Source: an uncultured Pseudomonadota bacterium (lineage in GTDB: Bacteria > Pseudomonadota > Alphaproteobacteria > Rs-D84). Taken from it: DNA of 64,000 bases. A program made the translations under genes and the position numbers. Positions within the stretch are counted from its first letter, which is position 1, and every line of letters starts with the position of its first letter. The stretch is taken from positions 8,085 through 72,084 of the forward strand of contig CACXVH010000005.1 of assembly GCA_902771095.1 (NCBI GenBank), written 5' to 3'. Below, piece by piece: positions 16,465-28,908 of this stretch. A model generated the notes under the pieces. It worked only from the letters and a program-made list of their open reading frames with translations, did not search any database and had not been told where the DNA came from.

Positions 16465-16595
16465 GGTCGGGTCAGATTCGAACTGACGAAAAAGCCAGTC
16501 GACCCGCAGGCGAGAGACAGACGAAAGTATGCCGGTGAGCGAAGCGAACGAGCCAAGGGGAATGGAGCAAAGCGGAATCAATCTGGTCACCCGCC
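16465..16595. repeat. tRNA-derived scar: an inverted tRNA-like T-arm/acceptor fragment at 16465-16489, and a 16-nt direct copy of the tRNA-His 3' end at 16580-16595
   Basis: aatctggtcacccgcc occurs at 16404-16419 (inside tRNA-His) and again at 16580-16595. The reverse complement of 16465-16489 reads cgTCAGTTCGAATCTGAcccgacca. Confidence 0.6.
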
Positions 16596-16686
16596 TTAAG
16601 ATATTTACAAAAAAACTTGACAACACTTTTTTTTGTGTAAAAATTATACCTGTAAAACAACCTTTGAAACAAAAAAAGGATAAAAA

Positions 16687-16980
16687 ATGAACAGAAATAA
16701 ACTGAAAAAAACGGGGAAAGATTTGTGGGAATTGCATCCTGTATTGTTGGCACAGGTGGGTCTTGTTCTGTTGGTTTTACCCCTTTTTGTTCCGATTGAA
16801 GACAACAACAAAGCTATTGCTGTGTTTGTTGCATCAGTGGTATTGATATTGTATGGCTGTGGTTTCGCAGTGGTTGATGAAATACAAAGACTTAAATCGT
16901 TCAGCAACAAAGAAATAGACAGAAAAGTTAAACAAGAATTAGCCAAACGCAAGCAAATGACATTGCAAAATCAACGTTAA
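16687..16980 (+). CDS. small two-TM membrane protein
   Basis: Two hydrophobic helices are followed by a Lys-rich tail. A TTGACA-like box lies upstream at about 16617. Confidence 0.45.
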   Translation: MNRNKLKKTGKDLWELHPVLLAQVGLVLLVLPLFVPIEDNNKAIAVFVASVVLILYGCGFAVVDEIQRLKSFSNKEIDRKVKQELAKRKQMTLQNQR

Positions 16981-16990
16981 AAATAAAAAA

Positions 16991-18187
16991 ATGGCAGATA
17001 AAACAAAAAAGATTGCAACCATTTATACGAAATATGCGCCAAAGAATATAACTTTGGCGGATTTTTCGTATATGATTGAACAAGATTCAAAATTGTTGAA
17101 TGCCATAGGCGGTAAATTTTCTACACGAAACTCAGAATTGGCGCAAATGTTCAAAGCACGTGGCAAAGGAAATGATACAGTTGACAATATTTTACGAAAA
17201 AAACTACATGATTCTATAAGCGAATCTGCAATGGAACAGATTGCCCAAGAACGCGCACAAATATGTACTGATATAATTTGCAATGATGATGAAATGCTAA
17301 AAAAAGCATGGACTTTTGAAGCGTTGACACGAAAACAGCAACAAGATTTTGCAAAAAAAATTATCAAAGGAACAAATGAATATTTCAACATAGAAGACAA
17401 AATCAAAGTTATGGTTGGGCGGCGTTCTTTGGCTACGGCTTTTATTGAAGACGCAATAGATTTTTTAATAAAGGTGCTGAAAGGTAAAAAATATCCTAAA
17501 AAATTGCGCAAGGGCTATTATAACAAATTATTGAAAGAAATAGGTTTGTTAAAATATGAATATTTTCCAGATTTTATTGCGTTGTTAAGTCATGAATATG
17601 GGCATTTCATAGATTACACACATCCAAATTTTGGTATGTTGGGTTCACAGGTTTCTTTTTATGGCAAAGTTGTTTATTCTTCCACAAGTGGTGTGGATGT
17701 ATACATGTTAAACCCGACAGAACGCAGTTCTCATAAAATTGCCTGGATTACAGAAAATCATATGTCCCATGCATTAAGAAATATGATACGCAAGAAACCA
17801 CAACTTTATATAGAATCGATAAAGATATTGGCTGATTATTCAAAGGCAAAAATCAAAACGATGGATTTTAAATATAAAAAATTGTTTAAATCTTTTGAAA
17901 ACGCTAAAAAAGAATATAATTCAGCAAAAGAAAATGCTTTGCAGAAACTTTATCCAAACCAGGACATTTCTAAGTTACCAACAAAAGAATATTTCAGTGT
18001 CCTTAGACAACTGGAACAACAACCAGATGTCGAAATCAAGTATAAAAACATGCGCGAATTGTTTGTTATGTTACCAATAGAATATGAAGATTTAAAATCT
18101 AATCTGGAAAGCTATAATAAAATGCTATATATTTATAATAACGACAGGAAAGGTTTTTACGATTTGATCGCCACAAAAGAATATTAG
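16991..18187 (+). CDS. hypothetical protein with an HExxH zincin-like motif
   Basis: LLSHEYGHFIDYTHPNFG is the only recognisable motif in 398 aa. It lies 10 nt after the preceding ORF. Confidence 0.45.
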   Translation: MADKTKKIATIYTKYAPKNITLADFSYMIEQDSKLLNAIGGKFSTRNSELAQMFKARGKGNDTVDNILRKKLHDSISESAMEQIAQERAQICTDIICNDDEMLKKAWTFEALTRKQQQDFAKKIIKGTNEYFNIEDKIKVMVGRRSLATAFIEDAIDFLIKVLKGKKYPKKLRKGYYNKLLKEIGLLKYEYFPDFIALLSHEYGHFIDYTHPNFGMLGSQVSFYGKVVYSSTSGVDVYMLNPTERSSHKIAWITENHMSHALRNMIRKKPQLYIESIKILADYSKAKIKTMDFKYKKLFKSFENAKKEYNSAKENALQKLYPNQDISKLPTKEYFSVLRQLEQQPDVEIKYKNMRELFVMLPIEYEDLKSNLESYNKMLYIYNNDRKGFYDLIATKEY

Positions 18188-18256
18188 TATTTTATTTCTC
18201 TTGCTTTATATTTTTTATGAATCTATAATCCTTTCAACGACGAAAGGAGAGTCACT

Positions 18257-19003
18257 ATGAAATTATCAGAAAAAATCAAAAATTTACCGTTGGTTTGGGT
18301 CATTATAATGGCTTTTGGTGTTGCGCTGGGGGGATTTTTTATTGGAAATGGGTTTTATAAATCTTTGGCAAAGCGCACTGTGACGGTAAAGGGTTTGGCG
18401 GAAATGGATGTCGTTGCAGACACTGCAATTTGGAACATCAAATTCAATCGTGTTGGTGGCGATTTGGTAAAGGTTCAAGCGGCAATCGATAACGATATTG
18501 AAAAGACACATAATTTCTTGCTGGATAACGGTTTTCACGAAGACGAATTACAGAATCTTCGTATAACTGTGCGTGATAAATATGCCGGATACAGCGATGC
18601 CCAGCGCCAGGGTCAAGATTCCAACGACAGATATGTTATTGAAACAGGTGTAATGGTTCGTTCGAACGAGGTTAACTTGGTTGATGGTGTGTCGCGCAAA
18701 ATGGGGGATTTGGTGCGTCAGGGTGTAACTGTTACCGAAGATTATGCTGGTCCAATATATGTGTTTAATGGATTAAACGATATCAAGATAAAAATGATAG
18801 AAATGGCAACGAAAAATGCGACTGCTGCGGGTGAACAGTTTGCCAAAGATGCAAATGCAAAATTGGGCAAGATTCAATCTGCGAACCAGGGGGTGTTTAG
18901 TATTTCTGCGCGCGACCAATCGGATGCGTGGTCTGATAATGAAAGACAATCAATAAATAAACGCGTTCGTGTTGTTACGACAATAACATTTTATCTGCGA
19001 TAG
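18257..19003 (+). CDS. SIMPL-domain (DUF541) periplasmic protein
   Basis: N-terminal anchor, then RTVTVKGLAEMDVVADTAIWNIKF... and a C-terminal ...VRVVTTITFYL, the pattern typical of SIMPL/26-kDa periplasmic proteins. Confidence 0.65.
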   Translation: MKLSEKIKNLPLVWVIIMAFGVALGGFFIGNGFYKSLAKRTVTVKGLAEMDVVADTAIWNIKFNRVGGDLVKVQAAIDNDIEKTHNFLLDNGFHEDELQNLRITVRDKYAGYSDAQRQGQDSNDRYVIETGVMVRSNEVNLVDGVSRKMGDLVRQGVTVTEDYAGPIYVFNGLNDIKIKMIEMATKNATAAGEQFAKDANAKLGKIQSANQGVFSISARDQSDAWSDNERQSINKRVRVVTTITFYLR

Positions 19004-19030
19004 TTTTTTATCGCGGACTGTCTTTTTTTT

Positions 19031-19133
19031 TCCCGTGGGGGAGGAAACCACGAAGTGGTGAGGGGGGTATACCCCCTTCGTCTCGCCCGCGCTTCGCTGA
19101 GGCGAGCCACTTCCCCACCGGGGCAGAATTGAT
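19031..19133. repeat. GC-rich hairpin-dense intergenic element (copy 1), related to 27921-27993
   Basis: The core gtgggggag-N-[accac GAA gtggt]-gaggggggta lies at 19035-19069, followed by further palindromes (ggggggtataccccc, ctcgcc...ggcgag). Confidence 0.6.
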
Positions 19134-19213
19134 AATAAGAAAAAAATAAAAAAAACACTTGCGGAAAAATTTTGAATTTGCTTCAATCAAAGAAAAAGGA
19201 AAGGGAAAAAGAT

Positions 19214-21073
<1,860 letters not shown>

Positions 21074-21099
21074 CAGAAAATAATTTTTCTTTAAATCTC

Positions 21100-23012
<1,913 letters not shown>

Positions 23013-27884: not shown

Positions 27885-27907
27885 ACCGCCCAAATGGGCG
27901 GTTTTTT
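27885..27907 (+). terminator. rho-independent terminator after the RNase E/G gene
   Basis: ACCGCCC-AAAT-GGGCGGT followed by TTTTT. Confidence 0.7.
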
Positions 27908-27920
27908 GCGGTCTGGTTTC

Positions 27921-27993
27921 TTACCCCCCCGCTGAAGCACCATAATTAATTCTCCCCCTGTGGGGGAGTACCGACGAAGTCGGGGAGGGGGGT
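27921..27993. repeat. GC-rich hairpin-dense intergenic element (copy 2)
   Basis: The core gtgggggag-N-[ccgac GAA gtcgg]-ggaggggggta lies at 27960-27993. The outer taccccccc...gggggggta arms are complementary. Confidence 0.6.
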
Positions 27994-28110
27994 AAAAAAA
28001 CCACTTTTATTCACAAAAGAAATATGATATAATAAGTCCGAACGAAAGGGGAAAAAATTGACGAAAAAAGTGGTAAATTTTTTTGAATCGGCTGAAACCC
28101 GCAGAAACCT

Positions 28111-28137
28111 ACACACACACACACACACACACACACA
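28111..28137 (+). repeat. (AC)13A dinucleotide microsatellite upstream of, or in the 5' end of, the paralogous gene
   Basis: Counted directly. It is flanked by the same 20-mer (28091-28110) and by gtaatct (28139-28145). Confidence 0.95.
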
Positions 28138-28149
28138 GGTAATCTTTTA

Positions 28150-28908
28150 ATGGCGTTTTTGTCAACAATATTCATTGTATCTGGTGCGTTCGCCGACCCA
28201 GATATAGATACAGCGACCGCATCTTGTAGTGATGATGTTTTTAATTCAAACACAGGACCGGTCAATATAGAAGTAAACTGGGAACCGAACGAACTTGAGC
28301 TTCATTGGTATAACGGCGATGAAGAAATACAAAATGTTGCCGTTGCATCACAAAATTGTACATACGATAGCAGTTTAACCCCACCATCAACAATACCAAC
28401 AAAGACAGGATATACATTCAGGGGGTGGAAACCAAAATGTGTTCGTTCAAATCTGGCAGATTTGGATACAAGTATAAGTAGTAATGACTGGGCAGCAAAA
28501 AGACTTATTGATGGATGGTGTAATGTGTCAGGCAATGGTGATTGCACCACATATGGTTTAACCGAAAATGGTGAATGGGCTATAAATTTTAGCTATGGAA
28601 TGTTAAAAGGTATGGCAATATGCACTGCTAGGCCAAGTAATAATGCCAGTGAAACATATACCAATGCAAGTTCTAATTGGCGCGCCCCTGTAAGTGAATT
28701 GACAACCGCTGGTGTCGGTGATAATTGTTGGTGTCAGGCCCAAACATTTACACGTAGTAGTGATGGAAAAAAATGTGTTTTGAATATGGATCCAATATTT
28801 GTTAGAACTTTAACTGATAATTGTTTATCTGCCTGTAATAGACGTTGCGCAAATCTGATAGGAGATCCTACTACAGATAAAAAACGAATTGTTTTGTATG
28901 TACAATAA
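28150..28908 (+). CDS. secreted Cys-rich protein: 1 Listeria-Bacteroides repeat plus 1 CWC module
   Basis: MAFLSTIFIVSGAFA, then TGYTFRGWKP. The CWC triplet lies at 28726-28734, followed by CLSACNRRCANLI. The start shown is the first ATG after the frameshifted leader. Confidence 0.65.
   Translation: MAFLSTIFIVSGAFADPDIDTATASCSDDVFNSNTGPVNIEVNWEPNELELHWYNGDEEIQNVAVASQNCTYDSSLTPPSTIPTKTGYTFRGWKPKCVRSNLADLDTSISSNDWAAKRLIDGWCNVSGNGDCTTYGLTENGEWAINFSYGMLKGMAICTARPSNNASETYTNASSNWRAPVSELTTAGVGDNCWCQAQTFTRSSDGKKCVLNMDPIFVRTLTDNCLSACNRRCANLIGDPTTDKKRIVLYVQ

Follow-up and report, generated by a model that had tools for sequence, protein, structure and literature searches.

What does a pure run of AC dinucleotides do at the 5′ end of a gene for an apparently exported protein? 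The question is raised by a locus, here called locus 2, in a 64,000-nucleotide (nt) stretch of contig CACXVH010000005.1 (GenBank assembly GCA_902771095.1, an uncultured alphaproteobacterium of the GTDB lineage Rs-D84), which we analyzed at its full length and refer to below as the window. An AC tract lies there between a short leader and the body of a 252-codon gene, and a second tract heads another gene, locus 1. Comparison with relatives leads us to infer that a gene for a secreted or surface protein has its 5′ end at locus 2, equipped with a phase-variation module of the simple-sequence-repeat (SSR) type that recurs throughout a family of such genes, and we regard it as probable that the locus is a tract-length-dependent translational switch which is now out of frame.

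The two tracts stand out from everything else in the window. Tandem Repeats Finder reports exactly two period-2 arrays, of 14.5 copies at 19266–19294 (locus 1) and 13.5 copies at 28111–28137 (locus 2), both 100% pure, and in a regular-expression scan of the 64 kb every other dinucleotide run has at most 5 units. The exact sequence GCTGAAACCCGCAGAAACCT lies directly 5′ of both arrays and has no further copy in the window; likewise, there are exactly two copies of the 26-mer GCTGAAACCCGCAGAAACCTACACAC (19246 and 28091), with none expected by chance (100 shuffles), and together with (AC)14A it spans 19246–19294 at locus 1. As the original prediction had stated, the locus-2 cassette is one AC unit shorter than that of locus 1 (13 versus 14 units) behind the same 26-nt block. 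The locus-2 tract is a pure SSR whose unit length is not divisible by 3 and which is long enough for hypermutability.

Walking the codons at locus 2 (Table 1) agrees with the frame assignments proposed earlier. The 19-nt conserved core of the block can be read in two frames, A (AETRRNL) and B (LKPAETY), the third being closed by TGA. Frame A is entered from TTG 28058, which follows a Shine–Dalgarno (SD) sequence and is currently out of frame with the gene body, and frame B from a TTG at 28083 that has no SD. Both of these alternative frames run into premature stops soon after the repeat (TAA 28148 and TAA 28140, respectively), the first of them overlapping ATG 28150. The long open reading frame (ORF) opens at 28138 with GGT AAT CTT TTA ATG (GNLLM), and two bases added to the tract, that is, one more AC unit, join the TTG 28083 frame to it, yielding the predicted GNLL…DPD fusion.

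Table 1. Coordinates of the cassette features at loci 1 and 2 (window numbering).
Feature	Position	Strand	Remarks
Locus-1 gene: ATG 19214 with SD, frame B, block 19247–19265, (AC)14A	19214–21073	+	fused state
(AC)14A tract	19266–19294	+	locus 1
Terminator-like hairpin AAAACAAATCG-GAA-CGATTTGTTTT	19314–19340	+	inside locus-1 signal-peptide codons (KQIGTICF)
Terminator hairpin ccgcccaaatgggcgg + tttttt	27886–27907	+	ends upstream RNase E/G gene; read from sequence
G+C-rich palindromic mini-element(s), CCCCC…GGGGG, stem CTCCCCCACAGGGGGAG	27916–27991		between RNase E/G terminator and locus-2 promoter
Extended −10 element TGATATAAT (putative)	28025–28033	+	recurrent TGnTAnAAT motif in relatives
Shine–Dalgarno-like AAAGGGG	28045–28051	+	6 nt before TTG 28058; AAAGGAG at same position in relatives
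Leader ORF, cassette frame A: TTG, LTKKVVNFFESAETRRNL(HT)4QVIF	28058–28150	+	SD-linked; stop TAA 28148–28150
Upstream frame, cassette frame B: SD-less TTG, LNRLKPAETY(TH)4R	28083–28142	+	stop TAA 28140–28142
Conserved 19-nt block CTGAAACCCGCAGAAACCT	28092–28110	+	two frames open, third closed by TGA
(AC)13A tract	28111–28137	+	locus 2; mutable element; 27 nt
Gene body: GNLL, M(ATG 28150)AFLSTIFIVSGAFA/DPD…	28138–28908	+	252 aa from ATG
TAATG stop/start overlap	28148–28152	+	ATG 28150 is a substitution private to this strain

Cassettes of the same kind occur in relatives, designated L below, with database proteins designated P. A scan of one genome per GTDB species with the 18-mer CTGAAACCCGCAGAAACC gave about 19 matches followed by (AC)n, all in metagenome-assembled genomes (MAGs) of gut or rumen alphaproteobacteria, several of them labelled Candidatus Enterousia and carrying up to four copies per MAG; the other 44 matches lack a tract and look like chance. 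The block plus tract was found in 26 further contigs in a metagenome scan, apparently derived, as their sequence relatives suggest, from gut or rumen samples. For frame and start statistics, we used 34 distinct loci found by DNA pattern alone, disregarding frame. Their layout is constant: TGnTAnAAT, about 15–20 nt, AAAGGAG, a start codon, a leader, the 19-nt block and (AC)n. An SD-linked start lies 5′ of the block in 34 of the 34 (ATG in 31, GTG in 2 and TTG in 1), separated from it by a leader of 3–12 codons, and flanks that are nearly identical enclose tracts of 8–43 nt. The body frame, encoding a signal peptide and a protein of 240–600 aa, begins exactly at the end of the tract, past which each of the other two frames meets a stop within 3–18 nt. 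The order of start, block, tract and body thus places the repeat between start codon and ORF body, inside the predicted translated 5′ end, rather than in a promoter spacer or 5′ untranslated region, and we rejected a promoter-spacer role because SD and start lie upstream of the tract.

The SD-linked start falls in frame A in some genes and in frame B in others, and fusion follows a simple rule, with frame A joined to the body at tract lengths ≡1 mod 3 and frame B at ≡2. Fused products of both kinds are present in the protein database (P0009, P0028 and P0003 in frame A; P0006, P0013 and P0022 in frame B), as are many unfused forms called from an internal TTG ('MLSPKQIGT…'). For several members (L041, L079/L099, L024 and L106/L107/L109), no in-frame start past the tract precedes the middle or end of the hydrophobic core, so an exportable product depends on initiation 5′ of the tract. 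A frame-B start is also present in about half of the frame-A leaders; we do not claim such dual start codons as a designed feature, since their frequency matches a rough chance estimate, the leaders being short and T-rich. Three members look locked: L090 and L095 carry an interrupted tract, ACACACAC-G-CACACACACACACA-AGT, and are in frame, and in P0027 the TGA of the block has become TGG, such that the third frame is read through a 7-nt tract.

Further evidence comes from the genomic slot occupied by locus 2, between the RNase E/G gene and a gene for an HI0933-like protein, where the tract measures 27 nt in the window, 29 nt in L107/L108 and the equivalent of 31 nt in L106. These three strains cover all three frames, one each, and L106 and L107/L108 are fused. 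The original prediction had named conservation of exactly 13 units in all relatives as the pattern that would speak against a switch; the slot instead holds three different lengths. In L106, a homologous gene directly follows RNase E/G with the same promoter, AAAGGGG and TTG leader as in the window, and a tract of (AC)15 plus G joins its frame-A leader to the body in a 287-aa frame (annotated as P0028, with its start placed at a GTG four codons in). In L107/L108, the gene directly precedes the HI0933-like flavoprotein gene, and its tract is fused, in frame B, only with an SD-less TTG (P0022, MNLLKPAETY…GNLLIAFLSTIFIVSGAFADPD). With 14 units, this is the very fusion foreseen for locus 2, reading MNLLKPAETY(TH)nGNLLIAFLSTIFIVSGAFADPD with two residues differing, and GNLL-I/M-AFLSTIFIVSGAFA-DPD is read through in two of the three strains in the slot. 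In a further relative, L109, an ATG leader precedes a 31-nt tract, and the gene is likewise fused (P0003). Both locus-2 starts have counterparts elsewhere, the frame-A leader being homologous to one with an ATG start in L076 (MTKNITKIFESAETRRNL), and the codon equivalent to TTG 28083 being an SD-linked ATG in L051 and L015 (the latter a MAG contig with 75–85% nucleotide identity to the window). This identity and the sharing of the cassette with MAGs labelled Ca. Enterousia or Alphaproteobacteria are what our analysis offers for placing the window taxonomically.

Length polymorphism is also seen elsewhere in the family, with tracts of 15 and 23 nt in L085 and L097, and of 39 and 33 nt in L050 and L087, each pair behind an identical 75-nt upstream sequence. 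Repeat number thus differs between strains at the same locus, by whole units. Taken with locus 1, which reads in frame from ATG 19214 across its tract to 21073, these comparative data support the proposal that the two loci of the window are the same switch caught in opposite states, locus 1 in frame and locus 2 out.

We also queried public assemblies with the 252-aa protein, RNase E/G, the SIMPL protein and the HI0933-like protein; contigs that reached the tract were 100% identical to the window, and others ended before or inside it (L009, L112). Three other public assemblies have tract lengths equal to those of the window, and because they are 100% identical to it over 2.8–7.5 kb, representing the same strain and possibly the same data, they are not an independent census. 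We note in passing that the contigs L009, L015, L038, L051, L085, L096, L101 and L112 end inside or beside a cassette or tract. Such ends fit a multi-copy repeat and/or length heterogeneity that breaks assemblies, and cassette copy number per genome is consequently probably underestimated.

Several observations weigh against the switch and have to be set beside this evidence. The same-strain assemblies all have 27 nt at locus 2, perhaps reflecting the same underlying data; each of the two candidate upstream starts of locus 2 is a TTG; ATG 28150, with its AGGT and TAATG, could be used for expression whatever the tract length; many paralogues have an in-frame TTG right past the tract, such that the OFF state is possibly leaky family-wide; and only 10 of the 34 loci are in frame, which is indistinguishable from the chance expectation of 1/3 (binomial p = 0.72). 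We regard this last count as uninformative, supporting neither side. Short or interrupted tracts, which should be the more stable ones, are fused more often than long ones (4/6 versus 6/28; Fisher one-sided p = 0.048, in a small sample), the pattern expected if the fused state is functional and long tracts flip freely.

If locus 2 is indeed such a switch, it would work as follows. Transcription would begin just downstream of the extended −10 element at 28025–28033, ribosomes would load at AAAGGGG and TTG 28058, and they would translate their way from the short leader through the 19-nt block and across the (AC)n tract, with tract length modulo 3 deciding whether they read on into the signal peptide and mature protein. 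At the present 27 nt, the TTG 28058 frame would end at TAA 28148 and the TTG 28083 frame at TAA 28140; with both upstream frames terminated, the full-length pre-protein would not be made. Slipped-strand mispairing during replication would alter the tract in 2-nt steps. Loss of one unit or gain of two would fuse TTG 28058 to the body, as in L106, and gain of one unit would fuse only TTG 28083, as in L107/L108; locus 1 would be the same module in its fused state. The original prediction placed the ON state at 14 units, which is right insofar as that length would fuse TTG 28083; the start that it brings into frame is, however, the SD-less one, and because TTG 28058 is SD-linked and lies in frame A, the better-supported ON state would need 12 or 15 units, as in L106. 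The promoter, the start codons used, the ON and OFF states, their reversibility, the switching rate and the effect on expression are all read here from sequence, and should be taken as predictions for locus 2. What the sequences do establish is the anatomy, the reading frames, the variation in length among orthologous loci and the occurrence of fused orthologues.

The promoter call at locus 2 follows from the recurrence of TGnTAnAAT about 20–25 nt 5′ of the start codon in the family (tgatataat, tggtacaat, tgatacaat, tgataaaat), since a two-hexamer promoter scan gave no −35/−10 pair at either locus; the lack of such a pair at locus 2 would fit a promoter of the extended −10 type. Upstream, the hairpin that ends the RNase E/G gene is conserved in L105 and L106 and suggests that locus 2 is a separate transcription unit. 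Between the two lie the palindromic mini-element(s), of which many family members have similar ones upstream and which the same slot in strain L105 lacks. More generally, G+C-rich palindromes (CCCCC…GGGGG) are found upstream of cassettes in the window (19030–19130 and 27916–27991) and in L049, L067, L085, L097 and L098; the region hosting them is otherwise 34–44% G+C, and they resemble mini-elements of the repetitive extragenic palindromic (REP) or miniature inverted-repeat transposable element (MITE) type. In some relatives, the element sits between the −10 element and the SD (L098 versus L082).

The strongest alternative is that the protein is expressed from ATG 28150 at any tract length, the tract tuning the level at most, without an ON/OFF switch at this locus. 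Two variants can be envisaged, in which the leader acts as an upstream ORF bringing ribosomes to the TAATG overlap, or the unstructured CA-rich run acts as an SD-independent enhancer; CA repeats are reportedly translation enhancers in E. coli, an observation said to go back to Martin-Farmer and Janssen in 1999. The overlap is present, AGGT lies 9 nt upstream of the ATG, the product would retain its hydrophobic core and AFA|D cleavage motif, and the in-frame fraction of about 1/3 in the family is what one would expect if frame did not matter. However, only this strain has the ATG: at 28150 its sequence is ATG GCG, and L106, L107 and L109 all have ATA GCA and are read through from upstream. The product would furthermore lack a charged n-region, several paralogues have no post-tract start that leaves a functional signal peptide, and an SD and start 5′ of the block are conserved in every member. 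We consider this account unlikely, although not negligible. The coupled reinitiation that had been suggested from the TAATG overlap is plausible in this strain, in which an ATA-to-ATG change would have created a start overlapping the leader stop, and is no feature of the family, as the orthologues have TAATA and the arrangement is not conserved. Some tract-independent or coupled expression from ATG 28150, with the minimal signal peptide MAFLSTIFIVSGAFA, is possible, and the present state of locus 2 may be 'low' instead of 'off'.

A second alternative, that locus 2 is a decaying or frozen copy, an incipient pseudogene in which the frameshift is a fixed lesion, seems improbable to us. Its starts are TTG rather than ATG, the available assemblies of the strain all have 27 nt, and degenerate family members do exist (for example, L081, with a short tract and a broken ORF). 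On the other hand, the 252-codon body is intact, the tract is long and perfectly pure and hence still mutable, the positional orthologue L106 likewise uses TTG in its ON state, and the new in-frame ATG suggests continued selection for expression.

Finally, it is very improbable that the tract exerts its effect at the level of transcription, by promoter spacing, Z-DNA (which (AC)n can form) or attenuation, and not on the reading frame, because, although most paralogues have a terminator-like hairpin about 20 nt past the tract, the tract is preceded by the −10 element, the SD and the start codon, locus 2 has no hairpin or terminator, and fused ORFs occur in both frames.

At locus 1, this hairpin consists of a perfect stem of 11–12 bp followed by a T-rich run, about 20 nt past the tract, and a terminator scan flags it as terminator-like. 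A hairpin is present at the equivalent position in about 24 related loci, that is, in most family members, and absent from locus 2, where no terminator-like site was found 3′ of the tract on the + strand. The regions past the tracts fold unremarkably (z about −1.1 to −1.5). Among 13 distinct variants of the hairpin, pairing is kept in 96% of cells, and three pairs have changed on both sides, with a covariation score that 0 of 500 shuffles reach; covariation, as opposed to thermodynamics, thus lends the hairpin modest support, and it might link translation of the leader with transcription or with the fate of the mRNA. Matches to known RNA families between 18900 and 28400 (Rfam, permissive threshold) were at chance level and far below gathering scores (SCARNA7 on the opposite strand of the tract, a Phe leader and an L20 leader). 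A G8 homopolymer at 19809–19816 in the coding region of locus 1 (…CCATGGGGGGGGCCTTG…) may provide this gene with a second mutable tract.

Among characterized systems, the closest match appears to be oipA (hopH) and other Hop genes of Helicobacter pylori, in the sense that locus 2 would work like them rather than be a member of their family. Those genes carry CT dinucleotide repeats in the region coding for the signal peptide, and in oipA slipped-strand mispairing flips the frame between ON and OFF, with repeat number differing among strains (PMC10564699). Both systems would combine a dinucleotide repeat at the 5′ end of a surface-protein gene with frame-shifting and strain-variable repeat number. 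Here, however, the repeat is AC, is much longer (6–21 units), is placed in an extension at the N-terminus that precedes the signal peptide proper, and follows a nucleotide-conserved 19-nt block that is read in two frames in different genes; moreover, the bacterium concerned is an uncultured alphaproteobacterium, and its genome is reduced. We found no homology to Hop or OipA, and Pfam gives only a weak Flg_new match for locus 2.

The opa genes of Neisseria offer a second comparison: they form a multigene family of variable surface proteins with CTCTT pentamer repeats in the region coding for the signal peptide, in which every copy carries a repeat of its own, the majority of copies are out of frame at any given moment, the 5′ ends are conserved and the bodies are mosaic. 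The family described here would resemble them as a multigene surface family with a per-copy repeat in the leader region, conserved 5′ ends and variable bodies, and differs in repeat unit, fold and lineage, as well as in that its module heads at least three unrelated passenger families.

A third system is pil1 of Streptococcus gallolyticus, a leader-peptide/terminator switch with GCAGA repeats, whose leader is a separate ORF and which is regulated by transcription attenuation (PMC3894217). The resemblance lies in a repeat within a short SD-linked leader ORF and, at locus 1 and most paralogues, in a terminator-like hairpin that a translating ribosome would melt; by the same analogy, the hairpin of the paralogues could couple leader translation to transcription, a point in favor of an action on transcription. 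In contrast to pil1, the leader here fuses in frame to the structural gene, and locus 2 lacks the hairpin; a terminator just past the leader ORF, as in attenuation of the pil1 type, is thus absent from locus 2, and locus 1 has its hairpin. In the literature, we found no report of phase variation in Enterousia, Rs-D84 or RF32, and no specific precedent for AC/CA repeat phase variation in bacteria, and random on/off switching of this otherwise well-known kind appears unreported in this bacterial group.

Whether the module does more than switch a gene on and off is a matter on which we are doubtful, but three extensions can be outlined. Because many leaders have starts in both frames, product could be made in two of the three tract-length classes, and the module could act as a three-state dimmer, with a strong SD-linked start in one class, a weak start in another and the third OFF. 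The hairpin about 20 nt past the tract in most paralogues could add ribosome-dependent control of transcription. Finally, block plus tract may serve as a recombination joint that shuffles promoter–leader modules and passenger genes. The basis offered for such a joint is that the locus is mosaic, the window sharing its leader with L106 and its mature N-terminus with L109, and that the same leader is found on unrelated proteins.

The proteins themselves are in keeping with a surface location. The 252-aa product of locus 2 is Cys-rich; by eye, its N-terminus resembles a signal peptide, and one segment is InlB B-repeat-like (Flg_new, E = 1.1e-5, at 25.9 bits just short of the Pfam gathering cut-off of 27). 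Its homologues, named 'InlB B-repeat-containing protein' by NCBI, are just 30–62% identical. Locus 1 encodes a 619-aa Cys-rich, putative surface protein with Flg_new and Flg_new_2 matches in Pfam. The same promoter–leader–(AC)n module also heads proteins unrelated to the locus-2 family (L018, L073 and L100), giving at least three passenger families, and thus behaves as portable. Among the proteins behind it are an Ala/Gly-rich family of about 320 aa (L018 and L073) and, in L035 and L093, proteins with a different C-terminal domain ending in …FFTNAGTGSF(I/V)AGP; in L024, too, the module heads an unrelated protein.

Whole genes turn over as well. In L006, L007 and L010–L012, the SIMPL genes are 98–99% identical to that of the window, yet the locus-1 gene is wholly absent; these relatives also lack a 398-aa ORF (the turnover regions are 16465–18242 and 19003–21097 of the window). 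In the slot after 27879, strains with an identical RNase E/G protein have a different cassette gene (L105, with a 19-nt tract) or none (L104). Divergence, mosaicism and turnover by presence and absence would be hallmarks of a variable surface-antigen family.

An observation on the neighboring sequence concerns ligA, which is split in the window into 21114–21884 and 21897–23012 by a 147-nt segment of 63% G+C at 21737–21883. L005, otherwise 100% identical to the window, has 258 nt in its place and an intact ligA (664 aa), and contig L004 ends exactly at the junction; the split looks like a local assembly chimera or gap-fill rather than biology.

Ca. Enterousia and the wider Rs-D84 are uncultured alphaproteobacteria of the gut and rumen with genomes under about 1 Mb and an unknown lifestyle (PMC12306168). 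At the level of annotation, gene callers mis-annotate cassette genes, in that they start OFF copies at an internal TTG or ATG, and a His–Thr repeat stands at the N-terminus of ON copies; tract length would offer a ready marker of population heterogeneity in metagenomic reads. If the proposed switch is real, it would explain why assemblies of Enterousia/Rs-D84 genomes break at these loci, and it would mean that host immunity, phage or a partner cell exerts fluctuating selection on the surface of these bacteria, with the Cys-rich cassette proteins as the likeliest mediators of that contact.

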